From a virus (Duplodnaviria; Heunggongvirae; Uroviricota; Caudoviricetes), in the IMG/VR virus record IMGVR_UViG_3300033121_001642, positions 1 to 64,000 of that record: a DNA stretch of 64,000 nucleotides; one strand, given 5' to 3'. This document shows positions 1,720 through 45,042 of the stretch, in pieces. How positions within the stretch are numbered: the first letter of the stretch is position 1; each line of letters begins with the position of its first letter. The notes under the pieces are model-generated. The model was given only the letters and a program-made list of their open reading frames with translations, did no database searches and was not told the DNA's origin. The position numbers and the translations under genes are program-made.

Positions 1720-2199
1720 ATGTGGTATAAAGCCGCTAACGAGACTTTTGTAACCTTATATCATGGCACCAGCCGTGAGAACTATCTTTTAATGAAGAGG
1801 TCTGGAGTTTTGAGGAAATCGGACGTACCGAACCTTACGACGAGCAAAGAGTTAGCGAAGGCGTTTGGGAAGCAGTTCTTTGAGGGCGATGAAACGGTCA
1901 TACTTTCTTTTGTACTTCCGCGAAATTTAATAGAAGGGCATGTTGGTACTGTAGTAACGACGGTTAGCGACATTCCAATGAAGTATATGAAGGGTATTGA
2001 GAAGTTTGACAGTTTGGACGCTTCGATAGGGAAGCCGGCGGACATAAGGCATAGGTTAGATATTAGTCAGCAAGTTGAGGGGTGGACGGCGGAGCAAGAG
2101 CGTATGGCGGTTGAGAAGATGAGGGAGTTGGAGAGGAATCCTAAAGCTTATATACCTGCGTGGATGAGGAACGACAATCGGTTTAGAGGAAAAGTGTGA
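1720..2199 (+). CDS. hypothetical protein; probable start at ATG 1720 (MWYKAANETF...)
   Basis: ORF 1675..2199; ATG 1720 gives the WY N-terminus; no recognisable domain. Confidence 0.55.
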   Translation: MWYKAANETFVTLYHGTSRENYLLMKRSGVLRKSDVPNLTTSKELAKAFGKQFFEGDETVILSFVLPRNLIEGHVGTVVTTVSDIPMKYMKGIEKFDSLDASIGKPADIRHRLDISQQVEGWTAEQERMAVEKMRELERNPKAYIPAWMRNDNRFRGKV

Positions 2200-6703: not shown

Positions 6704-7585
6704 ATGAATTGGTATAAATTATCCAACGGATTTGTTATAGAAGGCCCTTTTGACGGTAGCGGGCATATGACATCTGACGATCCGTCCATTATCTTTGAAG
6801 CAAAAATAGGCAAAGAGTCTATTGGCTATATTCTTGTTGTTATGCCAAAAAACAAGAACCCTTATGTTGGTCAAGTTACTGTTAAACCAGAAAATAGGCT
6901 AAATGGAGTTGCTACGGCTTTGTATAATAGAGTTGATTATTATTTACGAGAAAACGGTATTTTGCCATTAAATCCGTCTAGAGACCTATCTCCTGGTAGT
7001 CGTAGAATTTGGGATAAGAGATTAGGCAAAGGGATTGGCAAAGAAAGCCAAAGACTTTCTCCGCAACAAATCAATTTATATCATAATTTCAAATCGCCGT
7101 CTGGCGTTAAGCTTATTGGCAGCGGGGTGAGCGCTATTTTTCAAGTTCCAGGCATAAATCAAACACTCAACGGCGCTCAGCTTATGAATCAAGTTATTGG
7201 AAGAATACAAAAAGTTCTTGTACAAAATAATGTTCACACTATAGATACAAGTCCCGTCTCCCGATCTGACGCTATCGGTTTGGCTATTAGTTCTGAACCT
7301 GGAATCATTCATGTTGATATAGCAAAAATATTTAATACGATCAAAAATCAAGCTTTACCCTCTATTACTCAGCTTGATGGCGTAGAGGTTGATAAAGATA
7401 TTCAAAATGATATAATTGATAAAATTTCAAACTATATAACAAATCAATTGGCAAACACCACGGCGCATGAATCAAAACATAATATGGATTATTTTAATAG
7501 TTTTCCAAAAGGTCGGTTTGAATCTTCTGAAAGCGGTGCAGAGGGTTTTGGTAATCAAATTTCAAATCAATATTTCAAACTATGA
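6704..7585 (+). CDS. hypothetical protein, N-terminus MNWYKLSNGF; possible GNAT-like fold (VTVKPENRLNGVATALYNRV)
   Basis: ORF; GNAT motif-A-like R-x-x-G-x-A; WY start. Confidence 0.6.
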   Translation: MNWYKLSNGFVIEGPFDGSGHMTSDDPSIIFEAKIGKESIGYILVVMPKNKNPYVGQVTVKPENRLNGVATALYNRVDYYLRENGILPLNPSRDLSPGSRRIWDKRLGKGIGKESQRLSPQQINLYHNFKSPSGVKLIGSGVSAIFQVPGINQTLNGAQLMNQVIGRIQKVLVQNNVHTIDTSPVSRSDAIGLAISSEPGIIHVDIAKIFNTIKNQALPSITQLDGVEVDKDIQNDIIDKISNYITNQLANTTAHESKHNMDYFNSFPKGRFESSESGAEGFGNQISNQYFKL

Positions 7586-10500
7586 ACTGGTATTACGATC
7601 AAATTATTAAAGAAAGCGCAATGGGAGACAATTCTGTTGAAGCTTTTCTTGCGCGAATTGGAGTTCCCGAAGAAACAATAAGTTATGTTACAACCATAAC
7701 AAACCCAGAGTTGAAGCAGCAAGTTGTTGGTTATTTGCGCAAGTTCCCTCAAACTCCTTCGGTATTGTTGATGGACAAACTTAGGCCGCAAAATCAACCT
7801 CAGCAAAACCCAAATACTCCTCAAGAAGTTCAACTTGCCAATAGGTTTCAGAACCTTGAGTTTCAGAAGTGGTTACTTGTTGCTTTGAGAAAAGCAAGAA
7901 ATGAATATCAGATCAAAAAGAAGCCTGACGGCATTGCTCTTACAGGAGACGGATATTCAATTCCAGGTCGAGGAAATGTCAACTTTACTTTGATACCAGA
8001 TATTGCTCAGAGTATATTTGACTGGTATGTAAGAGGCGTTCTTCCTGCAAGGCAAGCTTTTCAAGCTGCTCAAACACCAGAAGAGCAGGCTGTTGTTGTC
8101 AACGAATACGGTGTAACGAATGCAAATACCAACCTTGCTGGGCTAACGCTTGACCAAGCGGATCGGTTTGCAGAAAACTGGCATGATGTTATTTCTGGAG
8201 AAGGCGAAGGGCTTGAATATTACGGCGAAAAAAGAGAAGACATAGTATATGGCCCTCAATGGAGTAGACCAGAATGGGCTGGTTGGACAATTAAACAAGT
8301 TGTAACAAAGAACAACCTAAGAACTGAAGGCGGCAAGATGGGACATTGTTTTGCTGAAGGTTCTTTAATAAGAACCAAAAAAGGATTTATTCCTATTGAA
8401 GATATAGAAACAGGAGATTTTGTTCTTGTTGAAGATGGAAGTTTTCAAAAAGTAACAGAAAAATTTGAAAGAGAATATAATGGAGAAATTATAAAATTAG
8501 AAACAAGACTTGGGGTTGAACCTGTTTTTGTTACGCCAGAACACTTGTTTTTATCCTTAAAATCAAACCATAAAGGCAACAAATCTTGTAAACTTCATAC
8601 TTGCGGATCATTGTGCAGAAATAATAAACCAGAAGAAAAACACAATATTGAATGGCAACCTATTGAGTCCTTAAAAGATTCGTATATTTTATCCAGAATT
8701 CCAAAAGAGTTCGAAGATATAAATGAACTTATCATACCTAATCATTGTATTGTAAACAAATCAAAAGGCGATAAAAAATACAAATGCGATAAAGATTTAT
8801 TGTGGATTTTTGGCATATACATAGCAGAAGGATCAAATGACGGTGATAAACTCAGTTTTGCTCTTGCAAAAAAAGAAACAGACTATGCTAATAAAATAAT
8901 ATCTTTCTTCTCAAAGGCGGGATTTTCTGCTCGTATAAGAAAAGATAAAGAAAATTACGGCGGTCTTGTTGTTTTAGTAAATAGTAGAATGCTGTGCAGG
9001 TGGTTCTCTGAAATGTTTGGATGTGGTTGTAATAATAAAAAAATACCCTCAAAATTACTTAATTTACCTAATGATAAGATTTTTCATATTTGGCAAGGAA
9101 TATTTGACGGCGATGGATGTAAAAACAGAAACATATTACATCAAACCTCAAAAGAACTTGCTCTACAAATGACAGAGATATCTCTTAGGCTTGGTGGTTT
9201 GCCTTCTTTGTCAAGAAAAGATAATAGCAAAAGAAACAGAAAAACAGCATATGTTCTTGAAGGAGCAGATGCTAGAGTTGAAAGAAATTCTCGGAAAAAA
9301 CACTTTTGGATACACAAAAAAGAAGTTTTAGTAAAACCAATTTGCCATGAAAAAGTAAATTTTAAAGGCAAAGTTTACAACATAGAGGTCGAAGGTATCC
9401 ATTCTTATGTTGTTCAGCACCTTGTTGCTCATAATTGCGTCGGAAGCTATTGCGACGATGTTTTGAAAGGTAATACGAGAATTTTCTCGCTTCGAGACCC
9501 GTCTAATACTCCGTATGTAACGATGGAAGTTGACCCTAAAAGCTGGACTTTTAGACAAATTTATGGCGACGGGCCTAAAACAGGAAACGTTGAGCCAAGC
9601 GACAACTCAAAAGCGATGATTGGCGAGTGGATGAAGACTCTTAAGGGCGCTTCTATTGAGGGCATGAATGACTTTGATTACAGCGATCTTAGTTACGGAA
9701 GCATGGACGACGATCTTGAAAGAGCTATATACAAAGGAGCAGAAGGTTATGGCTTGCCCATTTCTCTTACGGGATGGGAGTATCAAGACGCATACGAAGC
9801 TGTTTACAACAAGCTCAATAATGACCGAGGATATCGCAATGACGGCGGATATCAAACGCATCATGTTTCAAAGGTTCTAGCTAGAGCCGCTGTTGACTCT
9901 GATATACAAAAACTAAACGAAGGGCTTATTGATGAAGCTCGAATGAAAAAGATAGCGCTAGATTGGGCGCATAAGACTCCAAAGCATCATGTTATGAAGA
10001 AAGAGCATTTTGACAGAATGACTCCTGAAAACAAAAGAGAGTATCTGAAGGAATATTTACCAGAAGCTGCCGCTTCAGTTAAAAGAGAAACAGATCAAGC
10101 TCTAAAAGACAAATGGCAAGGATGGGAAAGATATACGAGTCCTCAAGCTGTTGAACAAAAGACGCTTGAAAGGGCTTATTACAATATGAGTCAGGCTAAA
10201 GAGTTTGATTATTCCAAGCTAAAAAGCTTTGATCAACTAGACGAGAAGAATCAAAAAAGGTTTATGGCTCAAGTTCTTGACGCTCAATTTCAAATTGCGC
10301 AAATTTATGAAAAGCGGCAAGAAAACGACGAAAATTTCTACGATTATTATAATGATGATTATTTAGAGCTTCCAGAAGAGCCCGTGGAAGATGACTTTTC
10401 AGATCCCGAAGAATATCAAAAAGCTGTAAGCGAATGGGAAGACGAAAGGCAAAGAATTGAAGACGAAGCCGCCGACTCTCATAGGAAGGAAAACCTTCCA

Positions 10501-11457
10501 TATTGTCTTGACGACGCCGTTATAGAAGACGTTGAAAAAACTCTCATGCAAACTCAGATTAAGCTACCAAGATGGTTTAGTAAATACTTCAACAAGAAAC
10601 AAGATAATAGAAGTCATTATCCAACAATACTTTGGACTCTTGAGGGGATTGCTCGTAAAAAGAAGGAAGCGATCAAAGGGAAAAAGAAACGAAGAGCAAG
10701 CGGTTGGTATAATATTTGTAAGTTTTCAGAGTCTTTTTTAGTTAAAAAAGTGACAGATATTTATGCCATTACTTTTGACCAAGCAAAAAGAAGCGACCTA
10801 ATTGAGGACGGAAACAAGTTTAAATCTAACGGTTCTTATACTTTTGTTGATGATAGTAAAATGATTTGCAGGGACGAAGATTATAATATGTGGGTCGAAG
10901 ACGTTTCTGATTTTGATAAAAGATACAAAATTAAAGACGGCAAAAAGAAACAAATCAGGAGTCCTTTCAAGGAAGGTTTTTGGCAGAGATACGAACCAAC
11001 AGAAAATGCAAAAAATATTGTTGAAGAAGTTTCTGAAGACGAAGTTTTATTAAAAGAAGATAAAAACAACGGAGACGAATGGGAAATAACCATAGAAGAG
11101 TATGGAAAAAACTACAAGAAAGCGAATGGAGGGTTTTCGCCGGACGAGACCAAGAGCAATATAGAGATTGAAGATTCAGAGTGCATCAACAATCATCGTT
11201 GGCGATCAGACATGATCATGCGAGGTTACGACACTCAAACGAACGAGCTTGTTGGGCAACTGAGCTATAGTGTATTTGGCAACGAGTTGCATATTAGCAT
11301 GATTGAAATTGTTCCAAAATACCGAAGGCAGGGGGTTGGGACTCTTTTGATTAAAAAGATGAAAGAAGAAAATCCTGGCTTAGTAATAAAGCCGGGCCTC
11401 ATGACAAATGACGGCTACTCTTTCTTTAGAGCTTTAAAACGCAGAAGAGTCATATAA
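7582..11457 (+). CDS. large hypothetical protein (1291 aa including intein), N-terminus MNWYYDQII; LAGLIDADG intein inserted after ..EGGKMGH; C-terminal GNAT-like acetyltransferase motif (IVPKYRRQGVGTLLIKKM); highly charged central region
   Basis: ORF overlaps upstream stop as ATGA; intein blocks and GNAT motif read from translation. Confidence 0.75.
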   Translation: MNWYYDQIIKESAMGDNSVEAFLARIGVPEETISYVTTITNPELKQQVVGYLRKFPQTPSVLLMDKLRPQNQPQQNPNTPQEVQLANRFQNLEFQKWLLVALRKARNEYQIKKKPDGIALTGDGYSIPGRGNVNFTLIPDIAQSIFDWYVRGVLPARQAFQAAQTPEEQAVVVNEYGVTNANTNLAGLTLDQADRFAENWHDVISGEGEGLEYYGEKREDIVYGPQWSRPEWAGWTIKQVVTKNNLRTEGGKMGHCFAEGSLIRTKKGFIPIEDIETGDFVLVEDGSFQKVTEKFEREYNGEIIKLETRLGVEPVFVTPEHLFLSLKSNHKGNKSCKLHTCGSLCRNNKPEEKHNIEWQPIESLKDSYILSRIPKEFEDINELIIPNHCIVNKSKGDKKYKCDKDLLWIFGIYIAEGSNDGDKLSFALAKKETDYANKIISFFSKAGFSARIRKDKENYGGLVVLVNSRMLCRWFSEMFGCGCNNKKIPSKLLNLPNDKIFHIWQGIFDGDGCKNRNILHQTSKELALQMTEISLRLGGLPSLSRKDNSKRNRKTAYVLEGADARVERNSRKKHFWIHKKEVLVKPICHEKVNFKGKVYNIEVEGIHSYVVQHLVAHNCVGSYCDDVLKGNTRIFSLRDPSNTPYVTMEVDPKSWTFRQIYGDGPKTGNVEPSDNSKAMIGEWMKTLKGASIEGMNDFDYSDLSYGSMDDDLERAIYKGAEGYGLPISLTGWEYQDAYEAVYNKLNNDRGYRNDGGYQTHHVSKVLARAAVDSDIQKLNEGLIDEARMKKIALDWAHKTPKHHVMKKEHFDRMTPENKREYLKEYLPEAAASVKRETDQALKDKWQGWERYTSPQAVEQKTLERAYYNMSQAKEFDYSKLKSFDQLDEKNQKRFMAQVLDAQFQIAQIYEKRQENDENFYDYYNDDYLELPEEPVEDDFSDPEEYQKAVSEWEDERQRIEDEAADSHRKENLPYCLDDAVIEDVEKTLMQTQIKLPRWFSKYFNKKQDNRSHYPTILWTLEGIARKKKEAIKGKKKRRASGWYNICKFSESFLVKKVTDIYAITFDQAKRSDLIEDGNKFKSNGSYTFVDDSKMICRDEDYNMWVEDVSDFDKRYKIKDGKKKQIRSPFKEGFWQRYEPTENAKNIVEEVSEDEVLLKEDKNNGDEWEITIEEYGKNYKKANGGFSPDETKSNIEIEDSECINNHRWRSDMIMRGYDTQTNELVGQLSYSVFGNELHISMIEIVPKYRRQGVGTLLIKKMKEENPGLVIKPGLMTNDGYSFFRALKRRRVI
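8347..9435 (+). mobile_element. Intein with LAGLIDADG homing-endonuclease domain (363 aa) inside the 7582..11457 gene
   Basis: Starts CFAEGSLIRTKKGFIPIEDIETGDFVL (block A), LAGLIDADG-like LWIFGIYIAEGS and IWQGIFDGDGCK, ends ..VVQHLVAHN followed by +1 Cys (CVGSY). Confidence 0.8.
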
Positions 11458-19564: not shown

Positions 19565-19625
19565 CCTTAAAAAGTGGCTAGTGGATTTCCGATGAGTTCT
19601 AGGAACTTTTTGGAGTCCTAGCCGA

Positions 19626-22740: not shown

Positions 22741-22779
22741 TCCAACAATCCCCTGCTCGAAAGGGCGGGGGGATTGCTT

Positions 22780-22950
22780 ATGAGTAAGAAGTTCGAAGAT
22801 TTCATGCAACCTGTTGCCGAGGAATCCGCTCGCAATAGCGTTATGCATCAAAAGCACGTTATGGGCATGGCAATCATTGCCATGATTTCATGGTTCTGTT
22901 ACAAGATTTCAGAAAAGGTCAAGAATGTCAAGCGCTTTATCTCTAAATAG
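22780..22950 (+). CDS. possible small (56 aa) single-TM protein, below the ORF-track cutoff
   Basis: ATG 22780 after a G-rich SD inside a hairpin; hydrophobic MGMAIIAMISWFCY; overlaps 22925 ORF out of frame. Confidence 0.25.
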   Translation: MSKKFEDFMQPVAEESARNSVMHQKHVMGMAIIAMISWFCYKISEKVKNVKRFISK

Positions 22951-23173
22951 AGGCCAGGTCGTAGCAACAACCAGCTTCGTCAATAAGCTTGGCGGCGGCA
23001 TGAATGTTACCTTCAAAGCCCCAAAGGGTAAAAGGTTTGCTTTCGTATTTCTCGGAGTAGAAGACGACGAGAACCCGATTGAGCCAACTGTTATCCTGAA
23101 TCAAATGGGTTGGTTCCAAAAGAAAAGCGCCGAACCAAAGGCGACTAAGAAAAAGACAAAAGCAAAGAACTAA
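22925..23173 (+). CDS. small basic hypothetical protein
   Basis: ORF only. Confidence 0.35.
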   Translation: MSSALSLNRGQVVATTSFVNKLGGGMNVTFKAPKGKRFAFVFLGVEDDENPIEPTVILNQMGWFQKKSAEPKATKKKTKAKN

Positions 23174-23192
23174 GCCATAACCTCTTCTTCAA

Positions 23193-23234
23193 CCTCCTGA
23201 CTTTGCCGATAAACGGTTAGTCAGGAGGTTTTTT
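23193..23234 (+). terminator. strong intrinsic terminator (10-bp stem CCTCCTGACT/AGTCAGGAGG + TTTTTT). Its 3' arm is the AGGAGG Shine-Dalgarno of the ATPase gene that starts at 23236.
   Basis: Read directly; ATG lies 1 nt after the T-run. Confidence 0.7.
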
Positions 23235-23235
23235 C

Positions 23236-24246
23236 ATGCTCAAAATTCGGTCACTAGAACTATCAAACTACGCAGGTTTCAATAAGCGAAGCGTTTTTAG
23301 ATTTACATATAACAACGGTTCTTATAAGCCTCTTTGCGTATTCTTTGGACCAAATGGTTGCGGAAAGAGTACAGGTCTTAATGCTATCGCTGTCCTTTCT
23401 AGAGCCAAAGCGTATTCAAAAAGAAAGAAAGACGAGGAAAACCTGCTTCTAAGGAAGATGCAATTTCATCCAGATTACGATCCAAACTATGCTGGTTTTA
23501 CAAAGTACAAAGAAGATATGGAAATGATTGCTATATTTGAAAACCAGGTTGGCGAAGAGCTTATTGTTCATATCAAAGACGACGATGTTATAAGAAACGA
23601 TCTTGCAAGTCTTGGCTCTGAAAACGTTGTTTTCATTGACGCAGACCATCCTATAAACAATAACAAGTTTCAAATACCGTCCGAGAGAATTGAACTTTTT
23701 CTTGAACTTGCAGAGGCGATATACGGATATAAATGCTTTGTTGAAAAACCTGTCTCGGCTACAGGTGTTGAAGCAGGTAGCGACTCTCTCAAAGAAATCA
23801 TAAGCGTTTATGCGAATAACTATGAAGCTATTACTTCTTCTGAATCCAAACCTACGGTTTCAAAAGAAGAGATTTACTCTCATCTTTCCGACCATAAAAA
23901 GGCCGAACTTTCATTCTACCAGGATTTTGTAATTCAAAAGGGAGAAGTTAAGGTTCATTATAAGTCAATGAGCGCAGGCGAGAAGAAAATCGCAACACTT
24001 CTTAGAAATCTTTGCGACCCTGCTGTTATTGACAAAAGCGACATTGTTCTGGTTGATAATATAGAGATGCATGTATATTTCAAGAGGCATGTAAAAATGC
24101 TAGAGAAGATACTGGAAAAGTTTCCAACTAAACAGTTTATTGTGACAACTCATAGTAGTCTTATGATTGATCACGTGAAAAGTAAGTTTGGAGATAGCTG
24201 TCTATTCGATATACCAATCATCAAGGGTCAGCCTCTTGTTGATTGA
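23236..24246 (+). CDS. ABC-type (AAA_21/SMC-like) ATPase
   Basis: Walker A GPNGCGKST; signature-like SAGEKK; Walker B IVLVDNIEMH; H-loop TTHS. Confidence 0.8.
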   Translation: MLKIRSLELSNYAGFNKRSVFRFTYNNGSYKPLCVFFGPNGCGKSTGLNAIAVLSRAKAYSKRKKDEENLLLRKMQFHPDYDPNYAGFTKYKEDMEMIAIFENQVGEELIVHIKDDDVIRNDLASLGSENVVFIDADHPINNNKFQIPSERIELFLELAEAIYGYKCFVEKPVSATGVEAGSDSLKEIISVYANNYEAITSSESKPTVSKEEIYSHLSDHKKAELSFYQDFVIQKGEVKVHYKSMSAGEKKIATLLRNLCDPAVIDKSDIVLVDNIEMHVYFKRHVKMLEKILEKFPTKQFIVTTHSSLMIDHVKSKFGDSCLFDIPIIKGQPLVD

Positions 24247-24821
24247 GTATTCACATGGAAGAAAACAAGTCAAGATTCGACATTCTCTCCCAGAAGCTAA
24301 GCGAGTTTTGTTTTGCTTGTAAAGATATTTTCTTAAGCAGAAACAAGATTTCATTAGAAACTTCACGAAAAAACATGGTTACAAAAGTCTTTACTCCCAA
24401 AGAAGGCTCTTGTAAACCTTTTGTTTTCTTAGTTGCAAGTTCTTACTTTGACACAAAGAGAATGATTGAAGTTGTCGCCGCTTGTTTGAAAGTTGCAGGC
24501 AAAGAAGTCGAAACTCCAATGAATATTTCTAAGGAGTTTGTTGATAGACTTGCTGAACATATCTCGCAAAACGACCATTTAATTGTTCGGCTTTTGGAGA
24601 ACTCAATTGTTCTTGTTTCTAATAGACTTGAGTTTCAAGTTTTTGACGTTACAGGAGTTGACCGCCCTTCAAAAGAAACACTTACCCGTTCGTTCTGTTT
24701 GAACCTGGCATTTTGCGGTAAGATTGTTACTAACAATCTTGATAGCTACATAGTTAATGATTACGGAATAGTCAATATCGAAACGCTGGCAAACGCAGAC
24801 AAGGTTATCAATGGCAAATGA
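24243..24821 (+). CDS. hypothetical protein, translationally coupled to the ATPase (4-nt overlap)
   Basis: ORF only. Confidence 0.55.
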   Translation: MSIHMEENKSRFDILSQKLSEFCFACKDIFLSRNKISLETSRKNMVTKVFTPKEGSCKPFVFLVASSYFDTKRMIEVVAACLKVAGKEVETPMNISKEFVDRLAEHISQNDHLIVRLLENSIVLVSNRLEFQVFDVTGVDRPSKETLTRSFCLNLAFCGKIVTNNLDSYIVNDYGIVNIETLANADKVINGK

Positions 24822-25734
24822 ACCTCTAAACGGATGGGGCAAGAACTGTTTGCCTCAATACATAACCGAAGGCAATGTTCGTTATGAACTTGCCTTTAAT
24901 GATGTTGACAACATTGAAGACGGGTATCGGAAGCTACCTCTTGGCTTTGATGTTTCTTGTTTTGGCATTGCCCTTCATAAGGACAATATTTCTACGCATA
25001 TCAATAAAGACTGCAATACCGGATGTTTCTTTGTTCCGTATATTGAAATACAGACCAAAGAGGAACTTGCTCGTTGCGTCAGCAGGCTTGCGGCTCGTCT
25101 TGGCGATGAAGTTTCTAAAATCGAAAAGACTGATAGCCCAACATTGAAGATCATTGTTTCAAAATATGTTGACGAAAAAGGTAATCGCAATTTCGCTATT
25201 GGCGGAACAAATCTCAAACCCAAAAATGAACTAATTCACAAACTAAATGTACAGACCATGCTTTGCGAGCCAATCAAAGTTCAAGATGACGAGTCTTGGT
25301 TTGCTGTTATTGCTGATATGGAAGATCCATATGAAACTCAAACCTTGAGAGTTCATAGAGAATCTATTTTAGATTTTGAAAAACGCAAACTAACAATCGA
25401 CAACAAAAACAAGCATGTATTGAGTTTGCTGCCTAAAGATTCAACCTTTTTTGGCAAGCATCTTGTTGGAGGCTCTTCTCAGAACTTCTATAATCCAAAG
25501 AAGCAAGTGGAAGGTTGTATTTATGGCCTATCTGTAATGAGAGCGTCTTCTGAAAATGAAGTAAACACGATACTTCGCCAGCTTGTTGAGTCTTTCAGGA
25601 ACCTGACGGGTTGCTGCTTTGCTGAGGCTATTGTTCTCTCCCAGGAACATTCTGGGGAAATTTGCGATATCAGCATGGCCGTCTATCAATCAGATATTCC
25701 ATACCTAAGAGAAGACGAAGAGGTTGATTTTTGA
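24811..25734 (+). CDS. hypothetical protein, third gene of the ATPase cassette (overlapping start)
   Basis: ORF only. Confidence 0.55.
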   Translation: MANEPLNGWGKNCLPQYITEGNVRYELAFNDVDNIEDGYRKLPLGFDVSCFGIALHKDNISTHINKDCNTGCFFVPYIEIQTKEELARCVSRLAARLGDEVSKIEKTDSPTLKIIVSKYVDEKGNRNFAIGGTNLKPKNELIHKLNVQTMLCEPIKVQDDESWFAVIADMEDPYETQTLRVHRESILDFEKRKLTIDNKNKHVLSLLPKDSTFFGKHLVGGSSQNFYNPKKQVEGCIYGLSVMRASSENEVNTILRQLVESFRNLTGCCFAEAIVLSQEHSGEICDISMAVYQSDIPYLREDEEVDF

Positions 25735-25764
25735 TTTGTGCTTTTTTAGCACCTACAATTGGTC

Positions 25765-26271
25765 ATGAGACCCAAAGCAATCTATGCGGCAAGCCTTGAC
25801 CCTATTACTGCGGGTCATCTCTGGCTAATCAATCAGGGAACTCAACTTTTTGAAGAGCTTGTTGTTTGCATTGCGGTAAACCCCAACAAAGTTGGCAGGT
25901 ATCTCTTTTCTGTTGAAGAGAGAATCGAAATGACCAGGATTTGTGTTCCTCCGACTGTCAAAGTAATGGCAATTGGTCCGAACTACCTGGTTGATTTCGT
26001 GAAACAAGAAAAAGCAACTCACCTCTTGAGAGGCGTTCGAAATGCCGAAGATTTCTCCGTTGAGTCAACAATGGCTGAAATCAACCGTAGAATGGCTTTA
26101 GATAGAGGCGTTGCCGTCGAAACAGTTATATTGCAGCCGCCGCATGATCTCTCAATCGTTTCGAGCAGTTTTGTGAAAAGCTTGATTGGCTACGACGGAT
26201 GGCAGAAAGAGATAAGGAAATATGTTCCTGAGCATGTTGCGATTGCTCTTGAGGGGAAGGTGAAGAAATGA
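25765..26271 (+). CDS. coaD: phosphopantetheine adenylyltransferase (CoaD/PPAT) homolog
   Basis: KAIYAASLDPITAGHLWLI (T/HxGH nucleotidyltransferase motif); LLRGVRNAEDFSVESTMAEINR matches CoaD RGLRxxxDFEYExQxAxxNR; SIVSSSFVKSL matches ISSSLVKEV. Confidence 0.7.
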   Translation: MRPKAIYAASLDPITAGHLWLINQGTQLFEELVVCIAVNPNKVGRYLFSVEERIEMTRICVPPTVKVMAIGPNYLVDFVKQEKATHLLRGVRNAEDFSVESTMAEINRRMALDRGVAVETVILQPPHDLSIVSSSFVKSLIGYDGWQKEIRKYVPEHVAIALEGKVKK

Positions 26272-27014
26272 GAGATTTCACAAAGATGGCAGATAAGAGA
26301 TTAACTCCCGATATTGGGATGGATTATCTCTTTTACATCTATGACAGAGCAATCAACGCAAGATCAAGTCTTTCTGCTCTTGTTCAAACCAGGGCAAACT
26401 TTGATACTCTTGTTGCGAAATACGCAACTCCAGTTTCTGAGGAGCCTCATGTTGCTCGTCAATATCACGACTTCAACCATGTCATTGAGGGTGTAAAAGA
26501 TATACTCTCAATTGAAAGCGATTGCGATTGTTCTGAGGGATCAATCGACGACGTTTTGTTGGCCTGGTTCTATCATGATTCAATCTATCGCTTAAATCCA
26601 AAGACAACAACCAATGAATCCGAAAGCGCCTGGTACGCTCTTGAGGATCTCGTTGGCATGGGTTTCTCTGCGGAAAGAGCAGGAAGAGTTCACGATCTTG
26701 TTATGTGGACAAAACATGACAAGAACCCTCCTGAAGCGGATTATGAAGCGAACTTAATTGTTGATATAGACTTATTAAGAATCGCTTCAACGCCTGTTGA
26801 AACTTTCTTTGGACGAACCGCAATGGTTCGCAAAGAGTTTTCCTTTATTGACAATAAGACCTGGACCGAAGGTAGAATAGCCTTCTGGAAGGGTTTTTTG
26901 CAGAGGAAAAACGGCAGGGTTTTCAGAACAAGCCATTTTGAACACTTGAACAATATTGCAATCAGCAATATTGAGAAAGAAGTCTTTAGCCTGGAAAGGG
27001 GCATGTTCCTATAA
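26268..27014 (+). CDS. hypothetical protein, possibly HD-type phosphohydrolase-like; coupled to the coaD homolog (ATGA overlap)
   Basis: H..HD-like spacing (YHDFNH; FYHDSIY; DIDLLRIA) - weak. Confidence 0.5.
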   Translation: MRDFTKMADKRLTPDIGMDYLFYIYDRAINARSSLSALVQTRANFDTLVAKYATPVSEEPHVARQYHDFNHVIEGVKDILSIESDCDCSEGSIDDVLLAWFYHDSIYRLNPKTTTNESESAWYALEDLVGMGFSAERAGRVHDLVMWTKHDKNPPEADYEANLIVDIDLLRIASTPVETFFGRTAMVRKEFSFIDNKTWTEGRIAFWKGFLQRKNGRVFRTSHFEHLNNIAISNIEKEVFSLERGMFL

Positions 27015-27025
27015 GGAGATAAGAA

Positions 27026-27229
27026 ATGGGACGAGAAAAGGAATTTGAAGACATCGAGGACTCGTTTGAAACAGAAGAAGACGACGACCTTGATCTTGAC
27101 GATGATGAGGACGAGGACGAAATCGACGACGACGAAGAAGATGAAGAGTTTGACGACGATGAAGAGTACGAAGAAGATTACGAAGACGACGACGATTTCG
27201 ACCTTGACGACGACGATGACGAGTTCTAA
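27026..27229 (+). CDS. hyper-acidic small protein (67 aa, ~75% Asp/Glu)
   Basis: MGREKEFEDIEDSFETEEDDDLDLDDDEDEDEIDDDEEDEEFDDDEEYEEDYEDDDDFDLDDDDDEF. Confidence 0.6.
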   Translation: MGREKEFEDIEDSFETEEDDDLDLDDDEDEDEIDDDEEDEEFDDDEEYEEDYEDDDDFDLDDDDDEF

Positions 27230-27233
27230 ATTG

Positions 27234-27260
27234 AACCCCGCTGCTTGGCGGGGTTTTCTT
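27234..27260 (+). terminator. rho-independent terminator (CCCCGC/GCGGGG stem, TTTTCTTTGG)
   Basis: Read directly. Confidence 0.75.
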
Positions 27261-27262
27261 TG

Positions 27263-27879
27263 GTGAAAAACTGGCCGAGTTCGTTTGTATATTCCGAAAG
27301 AGTGAATTGAACGATAAGCAGCCTTCTGTAGTCGGAACGCAGAAGGCGAATGAACAAGAGTATTCGAGACTCTTCTTTCTTCTCGAATAGGTTTCCCCTC
27401 TTTGGCCTCTGTTGTAAAGGGGGTTACGCTCTAAAAGAGCGGTCTTTGCTGAGAATTCCGACTTCTACAGCATTGTCTTGGAATCCCGCAAGGGATAGCT
27501 GCCTAACAGGCTTTGCCTTTTCACCTGTTGGCGTAGGCGAAAACAAGACGGTCTGACTGAATGAGAACTAAGTCTTAACGCCGACCTTAAAAGATCAACT
27601 TAGTAACCGTTTCGGCGGATTCAGTCGCTTTCGCTTTCCTTTTAGGGATGCGTTGGCGGCTGAAAAGGTTGTTGCGCAGCGCAATTAAGTTGTTATAGCG
27701 CATTATAAACAACTCTTCTATATACTGATACGGATTTGCGAAGCAAAGACGTATCACCGAGCGTAGCGAGGAAAAAGCTGATAACGTTCCAAACTCCCCC
27801 AGCCCAATGAAAAGGTACAGTTTTAGAGTGCCGAAACCTGCTTCCAAAATTGAAATTTTCTAACTAAGGATTTGATAGA
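27263..27879. other. 617-bp non-coding, relatively GC-rich region with several short hairpins; candidate structured RNA or regulatory hub
   Basis: No convincing ORF; hairpin TTCGAGA..TCTCGAA near 27362-27386; composition differs from flanks. Confidence 0.4.
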
Positions 27880-28323
27880 TTGAATATTGAAGACGTACAA
27901 CTCATGCAAATACCTTCAGAAATACTTCGACAGAAGTGTGTTGAAATTGAGTATTCCGAAGATCTAAAACCATTTGCTGACAAGATGTTGTCTATCATGC
28001 TTGCTAATAAAGGTGTTGGATTAGCAGCGAATCAGGCAAATATTCCCTGGAGAATGTTTGTAATGAAAACAGAGAAGATGAAGAAGCCAAAAACCTTCAT
28101 CAATCCAGTTATTCTTTACGAGTGCGTGCCTTACAAAGATACCGAAGGCTGCCTATCCTGTCCTGATGTCAAAAAAGAAATTATTCGAAACAGGTATGTC
28201 CTCATTGAGTATATTAACTATGAGGGTAAAAAAGTAAAAGAGCATCTAAGAGATTTAGAAGCTCGTTGCGCTCAACATGAAATTGATCACTTAAACGGTG
28301 TTCTTATCGTAGATAAGACTTAA
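27880..28323 (+). CDS. def: peptide deformylase
   Basis: Motif 1 GVGLAANQ, motif 2 EGCLS, motif 3 QHEIDHLNG; TTG start with TAAGGA RBS (alternative ATG 27907). Confidence 0.85.
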   Translation: MNIEDVQLMQIPSEILRQKCVEIEYSEDLKPFADKMLSIMLANKGVGLAANQANIPWRMFVMKTEKMKKPKTFINPVILYECVPYKDTEGCLSCPDVKKEIIRNRYVLIEYINYEGKKVKEHLRDLEARCAQHEIDHLNGVLIVDKT

Positions 28324-29269: not shown

Positions 29270-29624
29270 ACGTAGCTGTTTTATCTTCTATTTGAAGATC
29301 AAAATCAACGCCAAGATTTGACAGGAACTTTCTCAAGCTTTTCTCTGAAAAATAGTGACAGAGATGATTGTCGAAGCTTCCGTAACAAAGCTGTACTTGA
29401 AACTGTTCATTACGAAGTTTTTTAACTATGTTTGAGTACGGACAAAAACTATACTCAAGAGAGTCTTTTTTGGTAAACTTTTTTAGGCTTTTCTCTTCAA
29501 TCAAGGCGTAGGCGTGTTCGCAGTTTTTACAATCTATGAGATAGAAAATATGCTTATTTATTTTAGATACGTCTTTTGAGCCGCAAATAGCGCAAACTGG
29601 ATTTTTCAAGAAGATATCGTTCAT
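29244..29624 (-). CDS. hypothetical Zn-ribbon protein (two CxxC pairs)
   Basis: CAICGS...CKNCEH. Confidence 0.5.
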   Translation of the reverse strand: MNDIFLKNPVCAICGSKDVSKINKHIFYLIDCKNCEHAYALIEEKSLKKFTKKDSLEYSFCPYSNIVKKLRNEQFQVQLCYGSFDNHLCHYFSEKSLRKFLSNLGVDFDLQIEDKTATFTILPRRR

Positions 29625-30280
29625 AAAATCTTGATGGCTTTTTCAAATATCTTATCTACATTGTTTTGCGAAGAATACCATCCCTGAGGGCAGCCGCTTG
29701 AGAAATCCTGAAGATATTTCTCATACGCCTCATGCCATTTTTTTCGGTCATTTTCAGAAGCAATAAGAACTTCTTTGTTTTTGAAGCCCGTTAGAATTTC
29801 AGCCTTATTTTCGGCTTCTTTTCTAACCTGTTTCCATTCTTCGATTGTTTCTGTTATTGGCCCCCAGTGTAACAACTTCTTATCCTTTGAGACTGCCCAA
29901 AAGTCAATGGAAGGCATTTTGTGGCTTAGTATTGATTTCGTAAAGAGAACCGCTGCCGGATTGAATCCTAAGTCTTCTAGCTCCTCAGAAGACATTTTTA
30001 GAGCGCCATTGAAGCTGTTATCAATAGCGAGTAAATCACCAGAATCAAAACTGCATTCAATAAGAATATCTACGTCTTTGATTCTGTGATCTTTCTTGTT
30101 GAAGTTTTCAGCAAGAGAGCCCCAGGCGTATATGCTCTTAACTTGTTTGAAATTAGAAATACTCTTCGAAGCCTCTTTTAGATAAGGTTGAATGTCTCGT
30201 ATTCTTGGGATTGCTTTTTCGTACCATTTCATATGTAGGCTTTCAATATAGGCTTTCAATATAGTATTCTCCTTACACAT
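29621..30280 (-). CDS. hypothetical protein
   Basis: ORF only. Confidence 0.55.
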   Translation of the reverse strand: MCKENTILKAYIESLHMKWYEKAIPRIRDIQPYLKEASKSISNFKQVKSIYAWGSLAENFNKKDHRIKDVDILIECSFDSGDLLAIDNSFNGALKMSSEELEDLGFNPAAVLFTKSILSHKMPSIDFWAVSKDKKLLHWGPITETIEEWKQVRKEAENKAEILTGFKNKEVLIASENDRKKWHEAYEKYLQDFSSGCPQGWYSSQNNVDKIFEKAIKIL

Positions 30281-40773: not shown

Positions 40774-43700
40774 TTGAATATGGAGAAGAAAATGATTATG
40801 ATGGATACTGATGTTAGCTTAGACGAAGGATCAATTAAGAAGATATATTCGAATCAAGAAGCGCTGGACAAATCGCTTGAATATTTTGGAGGAGACAACT
40901 TAGCTGCGAGCGTGTTTGTTAGCAAGTATGCCCTTAGAGATAATGAAGGTAGAATTCTAGAATCGAATCCAGATCAAATGCATCGTAGGCTCGCCAGAGA
41001 GTTTGCAAGAATAGAGAAGAAATATCCTAATCCTCTTTCAGAACAAGAAATATACGATTATTTTAGGCATTTCAAGTATATTGTACCTCAAGGCTCTCCG
41101 ATGAGCGCAATTGGGAATCCATATCAAGTTCAGTCTTGTTCTAACTGTTTTGTTATACCGTCTCCAGAAGATAGTTATGGCGGTATTTTGAAGACAGATC
41201 AAGAGCAAGCTCAAATTATGAAGCGTCGTGGGGGTGTTGGCTTTGATATTAGCTATATTCGTCCCCGTGGTCTTCAAACAAACAACGCAGCTAGAACAAC
41301 AGACGGTATTGGCGTTTTCATGGAGCGATTCTCTAACACTTGTAGAGAAGTTGCTCAAAATGGCCGTCGAGGCGCTTTGATGTTGACAATCTCGTGTCAT
41401 CATCCTGAGATTAGAACTTTCATAAACATCAAGAAGGACTTGTCTAAGGTCACTGGCGCAAACATTTCTATTCGTTTAACCGACGAGTTTATGAATGCAG
41501 TTAAGAATAAGACGCAAGTTGAGTTGCGTTGGCCTGTTAATTCTAACGAACCAAAGATTAGAGAAATGGTTGATGCTGAATCTCTGTGGAAAGAAATTAT
41601 TGACGCTGCTTGGCAGTCTGCGGAACCTGGTCTTCTTTTCTGGGATACTGCTCAGAAGTTTACTCCTGCTGATATCTATAAAGACTTTGGCTATGAGTCT
41701 CTTTCAACTAATCCATGTGTAACATCTGATACTTGGGTATTAACTTCTGAAGGACCAAGAAGGGTTTGTGATCTTGTTGGACTTCCATTTGACGCTATTG
41801 TTGATGGAATTCGTTATCCTTCTGATATTAGAGGGTTTTGGAAAACCGGAAACAAAAAAACACTTGTAATAACAACAAAAGAAGGATTTAGATTAGAGTG
41901 TACTCCTGAACACAAAGTATTGGTTGCAAGATTTGAAAACAGGAAAAAAATAACAGAATGGAAAGAAGCAAAAGATATTAAGACAGGAGATTTGTTGAAC
42001 CTTGATAATCATTCCCAAATCGCTGAGTGGGATGGTAATGGTATTTTTGAAGAAGGGTATTTGCTTGGATCTCTTATTGGAGACGGATGCATTTGTGGAG
42101 ATACCGCATATCTTTCTTGGTGGGGCGGTACTAAATCTATAATGATGAAGTATGCAGCAGATTTGGCAAATAAAGCCCTAAAGTGTCGTTCTGATTTAGG
42201 GTCAGGATCTTTTGAATCTTCTAGCGCAGAGAAGCATGACAGAACAGGATTTAACTGTAAGGCATTAAAAGAATTGGCAGAAGAGTTTGGTTTAGATAAT
42301 AAGAAAAATATTAGTGACGAGATAGAAAAAGGAAGTTATCAGTTTTACAAAGGCATCCTAATGGGATGGTTTGATGCTGACGGTACTGTTAACTTCAACA
42401 AAGAAAAACAAAGAAATGATGTTAGACTTTGTTCTTCTAATCTTGAAAATCTTTACGCCGCTCAAAGAATGCTTTCTAGAATGGGAATTGTTTCTAAAGT
42501 TTATTGCAATAGAAAAGAAGCAGGAAATAGGCTAATGCCAGACGGCAAGGGAGGAACAAAAGAATATTATTGCCAATCAACTCATGAGCTTGTTATAACA
42601 AAAAATAACATCAAGCTTTTTGCTGACAAAATTGGGTTTGCAGATCCTGACAAAAGCAATAAACTCAATAAAGTTCTTTCTTCTTATGTTAATAGAGGAT
42701 TGTATACAGAAAAATATGTCGCAGAAGTCGTATGCATAAACGAGGGGCAACAGAAAGATGTTTATGATTGTCATATTCCTTCTGTTCATCGTTTCGACGC
42801 AAACGGTATAACAGTTCATAATTGTGGTGAAATTGTCTTGAGCGCATATGATTCTTGTAGATTAATTTGTATCAACTTGCTATCTTTTGTTGGTAACAAG
42901 TTTACAGAAAACTCGTTCCTTGATATAAAAGAATTGGAACGAGTTGCTGAAGTTGCTCAGCGTCTTATGGACGACATGATTGATATTGAGATTGAGCAAA
43001 TTGATAAGATTCTTGCTAAAATTGACTCAGATCCAGAGTCTGACGACGCAAAGTTTGTTGAAAGAAATTTGTGGACAAGGATTAAGCAGGCATGCGTAAA
43101 TGGTCGCAGGACTGGACTTGGGATCACAGCACTTGGCGATGCTCTTGCAGCGCTTGGCGTTCGTTATGGCTCTAAGGAATCTGTTGTTCTTACAGAGAAA
43201 ATGTATCAGGCGCTTGCTATTGGCTCATATAGGGCGTCTTGTGTTATGGCTAAGGAACGAGGAGCCTTTCCTGTCTTTGATCATAAGCTTGAAAAGGACC
43301 ATCCATTCCTTAGCCGTATCTGGGAAGCCGCTCCTGATGTTTATGCTATTTACAAGAAGTATGGTCGCAGGAATATAGCTAATACAACAACCGCTCCTAC
43401 TGGCTCTGTTTCTACGTTGACTCAAACGACTTCTGGCATTGAGCCTGCATATAGCTTGCTGTACAAGCGCCGCAAGAAGATTAATCCTGGCGACGGAACC
43501 AATATTCGCGTTGATTTTGTAGATCAGAAGGGTGATAAGTGGCAAGAGTTTTTTGTTTTCCATCATCAATTCAAAGAATGGATGGATGTTAATGGCTATA
43601 AGATTGATGAAGGCGAAAAAGCGTCAATTAATTCTCATGAAGATTTAAGCTTTTTCAAGAAATCTCCTTATTATAAGGCGACATCAAACGACGTAGACTG

Positions 43701-44421
43701 GTCTGCTAGTGTAGACATTCAGTCTGTTGCTCAGAAATGGATTGATCACGCTATTAGCAAGACCTGTAATCTTCCTAACGATGTTACAAAAGAGCTTGTT
43801 GCTAATGTTTACATGAAGGCCTGGGAAGCTGGTTGTAAGGGTTTTACGGTCTATAGAGACGGCTGTAGAACAGGTGTTCTTGTTTCTGCTTCCGAAAAGA
43901 AGAAAGAGAATATTCAAAAGACAAATGCCCCAAAGAGGCCTCAATCTCTTGATTGCGACATTCATCATACAAAATCTAGAGGCGAAGATTTCTTCGTTCT
44001 TGTTGGGATGTTTGAAGGTCATCCTTATGAAGTTTTTGCCGGAAAGAATGGTTGTATTACATCCCTCAAAAAGGGAACTCTTGTTAAGAAAAAGAGAGGC
44101 GAATATTCTCTTAATGCAGAGGACGGCTCGGTTGTTCAAAATGTTTGTGATCTTTTAACAGACGAGCAGGCTGTTATTACTAGAATGATTAGTTTATCTC
44201 TTCGTCACGGTTCAGACATAACATATGTTGTTGATCAGTTAGAAAAATCTCCTGGTGATATGACAAACTTTGGCAAAGCTATGGCGAGAGTGTTGAAGAA
44301 ATACATTCCTGACGGAACAAAAGCTTCTGGAGCGACATGCCCTAGCTGTTCAAGCTCTAATGTTGTCCGTCTTGAAGGCTGTTTGACTTGCAAAGATTGC
44401 GGACATAGTAAGTGTAGTTAA
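40774..44421 (+). CDS. nrdJ: class II (B12-dependent, monomeric) ribonucleotide reductase NrdJ interrupted by an intein
   Basis: RNR N-terminal ATP-cone-like region; catalytic loop NP|CGEI split by the intein; C-terminal Zn-ribbon CPSCSS..CLTCKDCGHSKC. Confidence 0.9.
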   Translation: MNMEKKMIMMDTDVSLDEGSIKKIYSNQEALDKSLEYFGGDNLAASVFVSKYALRDNEGRILESNPDQMHRRLAREFARIEKKYPNPLSEQEIYDYFRHFKYIVPQGSPMSAIGNPYQVQSCSNCFVIPSPEDSYGGILKTDQEQAQIMKRRGGVGFDISYIRPRGLQTNNAARTTDGIGVFMERFSNTCREVAQNGRRGALMLTISCHHPEIRTFINIKKDLSKVTGANISIRLTDEFMNAVKNKTQVELRWPVNSNEPKIREMVDAESLWKEIIDAAWQSAEPGLLFWDTAQKFTPADIYKDFGYESLSTNPCVTSDTWVLTSEGPRRVCDLVGLPFDAIVDGIRYPSDIRGFWKTGNKKTLVITTKEGFRLECTPEHKVLVARFENRKKITEWKEAKDIKTGDLLNLDNHSQIAEWDGNGIFEEGYLLGSLIGDGCICGDTAYLSWWGGTKSIMMKYAADLANKALKCRSDLGSGSFESSSAEKHDRTGFNCKALKELAEEFGLDNKKNISDEIEKGSYQFYKGILMGWFDADGTVNFNKEKQRNDVRLCSSNLENLYAAQRMLSRMGIVSKVYCNRKEAGNRLMPDGKGGTKEYYCQSTHELVITKNNIKLFADKIGFADPDKSNKLNKVLSSYVNRGLYTEKYVAEVVCINEGQQKDVYDCHIPSVHRFDANGITVHNCGEIVLSAYDSCRLICINLLSFVGNKFTENSFLDIKELERVAEVAQRLMDDMIDIEIEQIDKILAKIDSDPESDDAKFVERNLWTRIKQACVNGRRTGLGITALGDALAALGVRYGSKESVVLTEKMYQALAIGSYRASCVMAKERGAFPVFDHKLEKDHPFLSRIWEAAPDVYAIYKKYGRRNIANTTTAPTGSVSTLTQTTSGIEPAYSLLYKRRKKINPGDGTNIRVDFVDQKGDKWQEFFVFHHQFKEWMDVNGYKIDEGEKASINSHEDLSFFKKSPYYKATSNDVDWSASVDIQSVAQKWIDHAISKTCNLPNDVTKELVANVYMKAWEAGCKGFTVYRDGCRTGVLVSASEKKKENIQKTNAPKRPQSLDCDIHHTKSRGEDFFVLVGMFEGHPYEVFAGKNGCITSLKKGTLVKKKRGEYSLNAEDGSVVQNVCDLLTDEQAVITRMISLSLRHGSDITYVVDQLEKSPGDMTNFGKAMARVLKKYIPDGTKASGATCPSCSSSNVVRLEGCLTCKDCGHSKCS
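41716..42822 (+). mobile_element. Intein (369 aa) with LAGLIDADG homing endonuclease inserted at the RNR catalytic cysteine
   Basis: Begins CVTSDTWVLTSEG, LAGLIDADG LLGSLIGDGC and ILMGWFDADGT, ends ITVHN + C(GEIVL). Confidence 0.85.
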
Positions 44422-44982: not shown

Positions 44983-45042
44983 TGCATTATATTTAGCTTT
45001 AGCGCTACCCGATAATAGTATAGGAACTTTTGGGGGATACGA

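Follow-up and report, generated by a model that had tools for sequence, protein, structure and literature searches.

The question raised by the locus described here is whether an ABC-type ATPase gene and the two genes of orphan proteins that follow it form a phage-borne defence cassette or belong to the backbone of the phage that carries them. The genes lie in a stretch of 64,000 nucleotides (nt; positions 1 to 64,000 of the IMG/VR virus record IMGVR_UViG_3300033121_001642), hereafter the window, to which all hairpin and gene coordinates refer, while labels of the type L001 to L051 stand for homologous IMG/VR loci that were fetched for comparison, with L016 and L001 coming from one and the same contig. 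Knowledge of giant phages comes almost solely from metagenomes, and function is lacking for most of their conserved genes. An earlier note on the window had proposed an insulated, self-contained three-gene cassette acting in defence or exclusion. We tentatively favour another reading, in which the genes quite possibly make up the 5′ half of an operon that belongs to the backbone of a lineage of uncultivated giant phages (with contigs of up to 330–550 kb) and is inherited vertically, as opposed to a mobile defence cassette.

Organisation and conservation of the operon

The window appears to be part of a very large uncultivated phage, encoding a UvrD-like helicase, an SNF2 helicase, an intein-containing ribonucleotide reductase, ThyX, peptide deformylase and open reading frames (ORFs) of 1,200–3,400 amino acids (aa), and the proteins studied are 93–96% identical to those of a 333-kb IMG/VR contig. 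Among 50,697 deposited phage genomes, the DNA of the window was unmatched and the ATPase protein found no match at E <= 1e-5. The central elements, all on the + strand, are:

23191–23230, + strand: conserved hairpin made of an outer stem of 12 bp, a 4-bp inner stem and a loop region of 16 nt; its 3′ arm holds the Shine–Dalgarno sequence (SD) of the ATPase gene
23206–23211, + strand: CCGATA box in the hairpin loop, 30 nt ahead of the ATPase ATG, a candidate phage promoter element
23223–23228, + strand: SD of the ATPase gene, AGGAGG
23229–23235, + strand: TTTTTTC run, both terminator tail and spacer between the SD and the ATG at 23236
23236–24246, + strand: ATPase of ABC/SMC type, minimal and without coiled coil, 336 aa, recognised by Pfam, PADLOC, family alignment and PDB profile matches
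24255–24821, + strand: gene 2, an orphan of 188 aa, with an ATG start 8 nt past the ATPase stop
24811–25734, + strand: gene 3, 307 aa, built from two tandem copies of a domain of about 150 aa and closed by an acidic tail EDEEVDF (25711–25731)

The three genes are not insulated at their 3′ end. We found no terminator-like site on the + strand between 23240 and 27233, and the unit continues through three more genes, which follow gene 3 with gaps of 24, −4 and 11 nt:

25759–26271, + strand: CoaD-like adenylyltransferase (NCBIfam TIGR01510 coaD, 128.2 bits against a cut-off of 103.3)
26268–27014, + strand: protein of 248 aa and unknown function
27026–27229, + strand: poly-acidic protein of 67 aa with a charge of −47
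27233–27262, + strand: predicted intrinsic terminator, GAACCCCGCTGCTTGGCGGGGTTT followed by TCTTT (10 pairs, 6 of them GC), closing the unit

As predicted from the sequence, the transcription unit is thus one of six genes between the terminators at 23191 and 27233, and the three downstream genes are syntenic in L002, L003, L005 and L006. The surrounding synteny spans the block from the SNF2 helicase to the peptide deformylase gene, in phages whose proteins are merely 30–60% identical. Variable upstream genes (methyltransferase, membrane protein, SPFH) are missing from L002 and L006, and single genes have been inserted into the block, a sulfotransferase gene between genes 2 and 3 in L006 and a tyrosyl-tRNA synthetase (TyrRS) gene after the ATPase gene in L008, L027 and L051. 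The operon is flanked by helicases (UvrD-like, SNF2) and nucleotide-metabolism genes, with peptide deformylase and an RNase_T-type exonuclease nearby. Directly upstream of the ATPase gene, distant loci encode a cREC domain protein along with an RlaP nucleotidyltransferase, and distant ATPase homologues adjoin genes of thymidylate synthase, DHFR, dUTPase and DNA ligase as well as genes of the ribonucleotide reductase type.

More than 233 homologues of the ATPase were found at E <= 1e-5, and 40 IMG/VR loci carry its gene, mostly on contigs of 45–548 kb plus some shorter fragments. A pattern scan of 185,579 species genomes, which sees fairly close relatives only, returned 2 full-length relatives, both on short contigs of metagenome-assembled genomes. 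Judged by these searches, the family is almost confined to large uncultivated phages. Within the block the ATPase is the most conserved protein bar one, far above its partners and most of its neighbours: where ATPases share 67% identity, gene 3 proteins share 31%, and identity to L006 amounts to 57% for the ATPase compared with 36% for SNF2, 44% for CoaD and 42% for peptide deformylase. On the sequences compared, such conservation is unlike that of typical fast-turnover defence genes.

Upstream of the operon lies a further gene:

22925–23173, + strand: basic protein of 82 aa (isoelectric point 10.1), forming its own unit between the terminators 22749–22772 and 23191–23235

Its product matches phrog_8770 (E 2.9e-12), and the gene stands upstream of the ATPase gene in L001 (97% identity), L002 (86%), L003 (94%) and L021 (80%) as well. 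Two observations concern the downstream genes. The pair of CoaD-like and 248-aa genes is retained even in a phage whose ATPase is 43% identical, phage CoaD being an unusual auxiliary gene. The 67-aa protein consists to 73% of Asp and Glu and ends in DDDDDEF, a tail like that of gene 3; a small gene (58–70 aa) sits at the same place in all relatives. The protein might mimic DNA or be chaperone-like.

A hairpin that buries the Shine–Dalgarno sequence

The 5′ arm of the hairpin (23191–23202, AACCTCCTGACT) pairs with the 3′ arm (23219–23230, AGTCAGGAGGTT), and with a 12-bp stem followed by TTTTTT the element has the sequence of an intrinsic terminator, as which it is predicted to act. Its minimum free energy is −26 kcal/mol (z = −3.8), none of 200 shuffled sequences folds equally well, and in the folded ensemble the SD positions are paired with a mean probability of 0.97. 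A covariance model aligned 9 distinct hairpin sequences, in which 5 stem pairs are altered on both sides and 85.6% of cells pair, while a T-run of 4–6 is present in 9 of 9. The covariation score of 0.253 was reached by 0 of 500 shuffles (mean 0.142), and slid controls ranged from 0.03 to at most 0.095. Covariation sits in the distal stem, the SD/anti-SD core (CCTCC with GGAGG) being nearly invariant among the relatives. The hairpin that buries the SD is therefore real and under selection, and the terminator-like element that the earlier note had read upstream of the ATPase gene, with the SD in its 3′ arm, is borne out by both its fold and the covariation in 9 relatives.

Matches to the covariance model lie exclusively upstream of the ATPase gene, and the model (R1) found no more copies of the window's hairpin beyond the close clade. 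The upstream regions of ATPase orthologues follow the same design with differing stem sequences, and at the distant loci L008, L011, L012 and L041 the SD is again buried, by hairpins with unrelated stems. Over 31 loci, the 5′ regions of the ATPase gene exceed those of 347 other genes in structure and in SD pairing (Mann–Whitney p = 1.6e-4 and 1e-3), where the pairing comparison counts related sequences as independent and is hence inflated.

Occlusion of the SD had initially been taken as typical of tightly repressed, potentially toxic modules. A buried SD is, however, not diagnostic of toxicity, and the conserved CCGATA box in the loop suggests temporal control instead, of the type known from gene e of phage T4. 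In the T4 genes e (lysozyme), soc, 49 and I-TevI, a hairpin that sequesters the SD blocks translation of early read-through transcripts, and a late promoter within the hairpin relieves this block. Like these genes, the window has a stable hairpin that pairs the SD and encloses a conserved promoter-like box, placed where an upstream transcription unit meets the gene. In contrast to T4, the window hairpin doubles as a canonical intrinsic terminator with a T-run, and its CCGATA box, a putative promoter, differs from the T4 late promoter TATAAATA. The hairpin may unite terminator, SD lock and promoter within 45 nt, and so compact a regulatory element could find reuse in engineering.

The loop reads GCCGAT in 8 of the 9 hairpin sequences and GTCGAT in the ninth. 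Relaxed to CCGAWA, the motif has 7 occurrences, against an expectation of 1.5, within the 2.4 kb of intergenic sequence that the window contains, and it sits 9–49 nt upstream of several gene starts, several of them at 28–37 nt. Sites include 23206 ahead of the ATPase gene, 45009 ahead of a 3,412-aa gene, 30289 on the minus strand and 27831 ahead of the peptide deformylase gene; a variant, CCGATG, lies at 19589, 37 nt ahead of a 265-aa gene. Relatives carry CCGAWA at orthologous sites, and over ten loci its intergenic density is 2.7 times the coding density. The simplest reading that these positions suggest is a phage promoter element, and a putative promoter box of this kind would aid the annotation of transcription units in this phage group. 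A gene-specific operator had been favoured at first, since the strict form CCGATAWA has a single occurrence in the window, and was given up once looser forms appeared upstream of other genes. The loop motif was initially counted in 23 of 37 loci, an enrichment of which coding constraint may explain a part.

Some gene starts share more than the box. A 5′ leader composed of CCGAT(A/G), 6–8 nt, TAGGAAC, 0–1 nt and TTTGG(A/G)G, followed by ATG, is present in the window at 19589–19625 and 45009–45042 and in L002 at 7011–7045, which suggests a common promoter-plus-leader design for a gene class in this phage clade. At the distant loci L014, L028–L037, L039 and L044, a divergent gene of 219–232 aa has a start codon that overlaps the ATG of the ATPase gene (CATG), and with an intergenic region of zero length any ATPase promoter there must fall within the coding sequence of the other gene. 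In the window, a protein of 219 aa (29621–30280, minus strand) gives weak nucleotidyltransferase matches (NTP_transf_2, Polbeta), has a CCGAAA box 9 nt ahead of its gene start, and is the sole block member more conserved than the ATPase (96% identity to L002, 63% to L006).

The ATPase and its relation to immune sensors

Pfam and an alignment of 31 family members (39–88% identity) confirm the description of the 336-aa protein as an ABC/AAA_21 ATPase with Walker A, SAGEKK, Walker B and H-loop. It scores 46.4 bits for AAA_21 (cut-off 27), 36.6 for AAA_15 (32.1) and, at threshold, 40.4 for SMC_N (40.0), and AAA_23 and ABC_tran pass as well. The motifs comprise Walker A GPNGCGKS (G38–K44), Q146 as the probable Q-loop, the signature SAGEKK (S246-G248-E249-K), Walker B D274 and the H-loop TTHS (H306). 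The residues G38, K44, Q146, S246, G248, E249, D274 and H306 are invariant throughout the alignment, which also contains the family-specific blocks FHPDYDP and DADHPINxxKFQ. The protein thus passes the profile thresholds of the ABC/SMC superfamily and has its Walker A, Q-loop, signature, Walker B and H-loop but lacks the catalytic Glu after the Walker B Asp. This position is Asn275, invariant in 31 of 31 members, and in a profile-to-PDB alignment LVDNIEMHVY of the ATPase falls on LIDEIDLHLH of PtuA. Glu-to-Gln mutants of ABC enzymes bind ATP and dimerise but hydrolyse poorly, and in the light of this precedent the Asn suggests an ATP-binding switch.

In a profile search of the PDB, the closest structures were PtuA proteins, from Septu and from the retrons Ec83 and Ec78 (E between 1e-21, for Ec83, and 1e-12), followed by AriA (1e-9) and the SMC1 head (2e-7). 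By sequence, the protein thus stands close to the defence ATPases, and the ATPase class given in the earlier note is correct. PADLOC returned many partial matches, the best being PtuA, AbiLi, AriA and MADS3; those to PtuA do not exceed 76.7 bits and fall into two separate stretches, the better of which covers a C-terminal segment alone. Matches to PHROGs are confined to families of unknown function, and all curated family models stay far under their cut-offs, as NCBIfam shows: 48.7 against 500 bits for PtuA (NF041760), 26.6 against 172 for RecF (TIGR00611), where the match consists of the P-loop region alone, and 15.9 against 478.5 for sbcC (TIGR00618).

With PtuA and AriA the ATPase shares the branch of the ABC proteins (AAA_21, AAA_15), and both the N-terminal strand–P-loop region and the block of signature, Walker B and H-loop align. 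It differs from them in length (336 against 465–552 aa, the long insertion/dimerisation region being missing), in the Asn for the catalytic Glu, in its two family-specific blocks, in the lack of an HNH (PtuB) or Toprim (AriB) partner and in its residence in large phage genomes rather than cellular defence islands. For Septu, neither a family-level PtuA score nor an adjacent HNH protein PtuB was found, and for PARIS the adjacent Toprim/DUF4435 nuclease AriB is absent, gene 3 belonging to a family without invariant acidic residues. Unlike in Gabija, the ATPase is an ABC head only, without a fused Toprim domain, its neighbours are orphans and the UvrD-like gene of the window (2196–4583) lies about 19 kb away. 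The ABC head architecture, the threshold match to SMC_N and the weak similarity to RecF, SbcC and SMC1 are also reminiscent of Rad50/SbcC and RecF. In comparison with Rad50/SbcC, however, 336 aa leave no room for a coiled coil or a zinc hook, a nuclease or phosphoesterase partner is lacking, and scores are far under the cut-offs. A clamp loader, suggested by protein sizes of 336, 188 and 307 aa like those of T4 gp44/gp62/gp45, was rejected, the ATPase being of ABC type with signature and H-loop and not AAA+.

A catalytically impaired copy of a host ABC ATPase, one that guides tRNA-cutting defence nucleases, could serve its phage as a counter-defence decoy, sequestering or poisoning host complexes (PARIS AriA, retron/Septu PtuA, PrrC/RloC-like) alongside RNA-repair enzymes and TyrRS. 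We regard this explanation as improbable, although the Asn throughout the aligned family, the PtuA/AriA similarity and the confinement of the family to phages agree with it. So do the distant loci with TyrRS directly downstream and RlaP and cREC directly upstream of the ATPase gene, the latter two being predicted RNA-repair or cyclic-phosphate-processing enzymes in jumbo phages (PMC7824862). Retron-Eco7 PtuA/PtuB is reported to degrade tRNA-Tyr (PMC12673091) and PARIS to be neutralised by a viral tRNA (PMC11464382), which makes a counter-defence reading conceivable. These points are, however, purely contextual (adjacency), while the missing insertion of about 200 aa, needed for PtuA/AriA assembly, makes mixed assemblies doubtful. 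Known anti-defence proteins are moreover usually small, variable and patchy, whereas the ATPase is highly conserved.

Gene 2 and gene 3

The two ORFs behind the ATPase gene had been described as overlapping and coupled, with 192 and 307 aa. Gene 3 does overlap gene 2, by 11 nt (ATGGCAAATGA), but an overlap of gene 2 with the ATPase gene could not be upheld. All database homologues begin at the ATG 24255, giving 188 aa, and relatives all have an ATG 2–12 nt past the ATPase stop, while the TTG at 24243 is not conserved and occurs solely where the ATPase happens to end in GTTGATTGA. Short gaps and overlaps among the three genes are conserved in relatives. In iterated searches with hidden Markov models (HMMs), the gene 2 family was located downstream of the ATPase gene in 26 of the 26 loci where it was found, and every locus with an ATPase identity of at least 39% has it. 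Its invariant residues are N168 and G171 alone. Gene 3 is present solely where ATPase identity is at least 57%, and for ATPase homologues at 33–38% identity both partners are absent.

Among 1.84 billion proteins, 26 cluster representatives match gene 3 at E <= 0.001, nearly all of about 300 aa. Its N- and C-terminal halves are homologous to each other (hhalign probability 84%, E 8e-6), while hhalign found no homology between gene 2 and gene 3 (P > 0.1). At distant loci, gene 2 is followed by a family of 140–181 aa with weak resemblance to the gene 3 repeat (hhalign P 0.003–0.01). As part of the reading favoured here, and with the same reserve, gene 3 would consist of two copies, joined in one chain, of a domain that exists in more distant phages as a small protein of its own. 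In 16 of 24 members of the gene 3 family the sequence finishes with acidic residues and a terminal Phe; at the distant loci the acidic tail is found on gene 2 and the single-domain homologues of gene 3 are without it. A tubulin/PhuZ relationship, considered for gene 3 because of the motif AIGGTN and the acidic tail, was dismissed as the Gly residues are not conserved.

As a single sequence, gene 2 has no match in Pfam, PHROG, PADLOC or NCBIfam, and its family profile has none in the PDB; gene 3 gave no significant match in Pfam, PHROG, PADLOC or NCBIfam, and a profile search of 24 members against Pfam and the PDB was empty too. Such searches hence yielded matches for the ATPase only and none for its partners, and structure prediction of the partners gave models of low confidence to which Foldseek assigned no fold. 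With regard to PtuB and AriB, neither gene matches PADLOC at E < 1, so that no such partner is found, nor is there a match in Pfam. The two genes show no invariant His/Asn/Cys pattern as in HNH-type PtuB, no Asp, Glu or His is invariant across the family of gene 3, and Pfam contains no phosphoesterase match for either partner. The earlier remark that the partners match no recognisable nuclease holds, as no nuclease or defence model was matched, and in their sequences no nuclease-type effector is visible.

This bears directly on the proposal that the locus is a phage-borne defence or superinfection-exclusion system, in which a PtuA/AriA-like sensor ATPase would act with two novel effectors and stay silent through the buried SD until a competitor infects. 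The best PADLOC matches and the closest structures, Septu/retron PtuA and PARIS AriA, speak in its favour, and so do fast-evolving partners, the tight control of translation and the description of PARIS as often encoded in viral genomes (PMC11464382). Yet partners without any defence match or invariant catalytic-type residues leave such a system without an effector, and the ATPase scores far under the family cut-offs. Its very high conservation at a fixed syntenic position in the backbone, the predicted co-transcription with CoaD-like and other, unrelated genes and the loss of both partners in distant family members likewise argue against it, and the family is essentially absent from cellular genomes, where such defence systems are common. 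The defence or exclusion cassette of the earlier note is therefore not supported, and we consider it improbable.

A different explanation also takes the tail of gene 3 into account. C-terminal acidic tails with an aromatic end are known from E. coli SSB and from T7 gp2.5 and gp4, and the tip of gene 3, [DE]3-4 with a terminal Phe, resembles them. The three genes could accordingly encode a replication or recombination accessory, with the ATPase as a RecF/Rad50-head-like ATP clamp, gene 2 as a mediator and gene 3 as a DNA-binding protein whose SSB-like tail recruits polymerase or helicase. The Pfam matches to SMC_N and AAA_23, the weak N-terminal matches to RecF and SbcC, the SMC1 head, the location between helicases and nucleotide-metabolism genes and a conservation of the ATPase like that of a core gene would all be consistent with this role, and an ATPase that proved to be a core replication or repair factor would fill a gap in giant-phage biology. 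Against it stand the low RecF score and the lack of a coiled coil, a zinc hook or a partner phosphoesterase of Mre11/SbcD type. An OB-fold or SSB signal was found in no search, so that gene 3 resembles SSB, gp2.5 and gp4 by its tail alone, without sequence or fold evidence for an OB-fold or DNA binding, and in distant phages the tail sits on gene 2 and not on the single-domain homologues. We judge this role unlikely.

A probable structured RNA downstream of the operon

In the 650-nt gap behind the operon (27230–27879), a non-coding stretch on the + strand (27428–27840) shows a DNA conservation far above that of the flanking proteins. With nhmmer it was found 3–6 kb downstream of the ATPase gene in 22 loci, including phages with ATPases of 40–49% identity. 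RNAalifold detected compensatory changes in 17 of 75 pairs with 5 sequences and in 12 of 24 pairs with 11 sequences, and G–U pairs favour the + strand. No Rfam family matched at gathering score and nothing credible at E <= 5, and the stretch contains no tRNA or tmRNA. The stretch probably specifies a so far undescribed structured RNA, about 350–400 nt in length, that belongs to this phage group and may be a new large phage RNA. A CCGAAA box is located upstream of the stretch, at 27294.

This RNA allows for an extended version of the counter-defence idea, which we regard as a long shot. A megaphage-specific ribonucleoprotein or decoy system against host tRNA-targeting immunity guided by ABC ATPases (PARIS, retron-Septu, PrrC/RloC type) could be made up of the ATPase, gene 2 and the domain of gene 3, possibly joined by the structured RNA, a system in which a hydrolysis-dead viral mimic of the host sensor would work beside viral TyrRS and RNA-repair enzymes. 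Were the ATPase a viral mimic of host defence ATPases, it would stand for a new kind of counter-defence.

Proposed mode of action

We return to the reading of the locus as part of a backbone operon and propose a model in which the ATPase, a minimal relative of PtuA and AriA, acts most likely as an ATP-dependent dimerising switch or scaffold and not as a fast motor. It and gene 2, its constant neighbour, would probably form a complex together with gene 3, since gene order, family co-occurrence and the short gaps are conserved, and the acidic, Phe-ended tail of gene 3 would be of a type by which proteins dock onto their partners. The substrate may lie in nucleic-acid maintenance or counter-defence, probably involving RNA or tRNA, rather than in host killing; put more broadly, it would probably be RNA- or DNA-associated. 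An RNA-centred substrate is suggested because RlaP/cREC, TyrRS, peptide deformylase, the RNase_T-type exonuclease and the structured RNA surround the operon. A conflict-related role, especially in counter-defence, is conceivable.

Expression would be gated in three steps. The hairpin and its T-run would end transcription of the upstream gene, the ribosome site would be locked in the stem of any read-through RNA, and the promoter-like CCGATA box would start transcripts within the hairpin. Transcripts that start there would lack the 5′ arm, and their ribosome site would consequently be free.

The layout of the genes, their conservation, the covariation, the motif enrichment, the Asn substitution, the duplication within gene 3 and the restriction to phages are established by the analysis; slow ATP hydrolysis, assembly of a complex, activity of the promoter and a role related to RNA are what we infer. 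Several observations weigh against the model. A near-invariant Glu277 lies two residues past Asn275 and may be an alternative catalytic base, so that normal ATP hydrolysis is possible. Complex formation and the RNA role are deduced from gene order alone, and AlphaFold2 models of the partners, built on 6-sequence alignments, reached a predicted local distance difference test (pLDDT) score of 43.5 for gene 2 and 37.6 for gene 3, with nothing below E 0.1 in a Foldseek search of both against the PDB, just local helix-plus-hairpin matches. The promoter reading is based on a 6-nt motif, which in one group of distant loci falls within the coding sequence of a divergent gene and is maybe conserved for that reason, and the inflation of the SD-pairing comparison noted above has to be borne in mind. 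All of the characterised proteins to which the ATPase is most closely related act in defence, and the neighbourhood is functionally mixed (CoaD, ThyX, lysozyme, SPFH), which makes guilt by association weak.

What the locus adds is a phage-restricted family of minimal ABC ATPases, akin to bacterial immune sensors and without the catalytic Glu, together with two orphan partner families and an expression switch that can be tested.

Additional observations

A segment of 1.18 kb (26988–28168) is inverted in the 92%-identical L001 (12178–13364), whereas L002, L003 and L005 have the orientation of the window. It starts at the end of the 248-aa gene, covers the acidic gene and the RNA region and stops two thirds of the way into the peptide deformylase gene. 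Inverted repeats flanking the segment were looked for and not found, and the difference could be an assembly error or a real inversion splitting the deformylase gene.

Inteins were detected in two genes of the window by Hint, LAGLIDADG and Intein_splicing hits, at 7582–11457 and 40774–44421, both on the + strand. The genes concerned encode a 1,291-aa protein with PcfJ-like and GNAT domains and the large subunit of ribonucleotide reductase.

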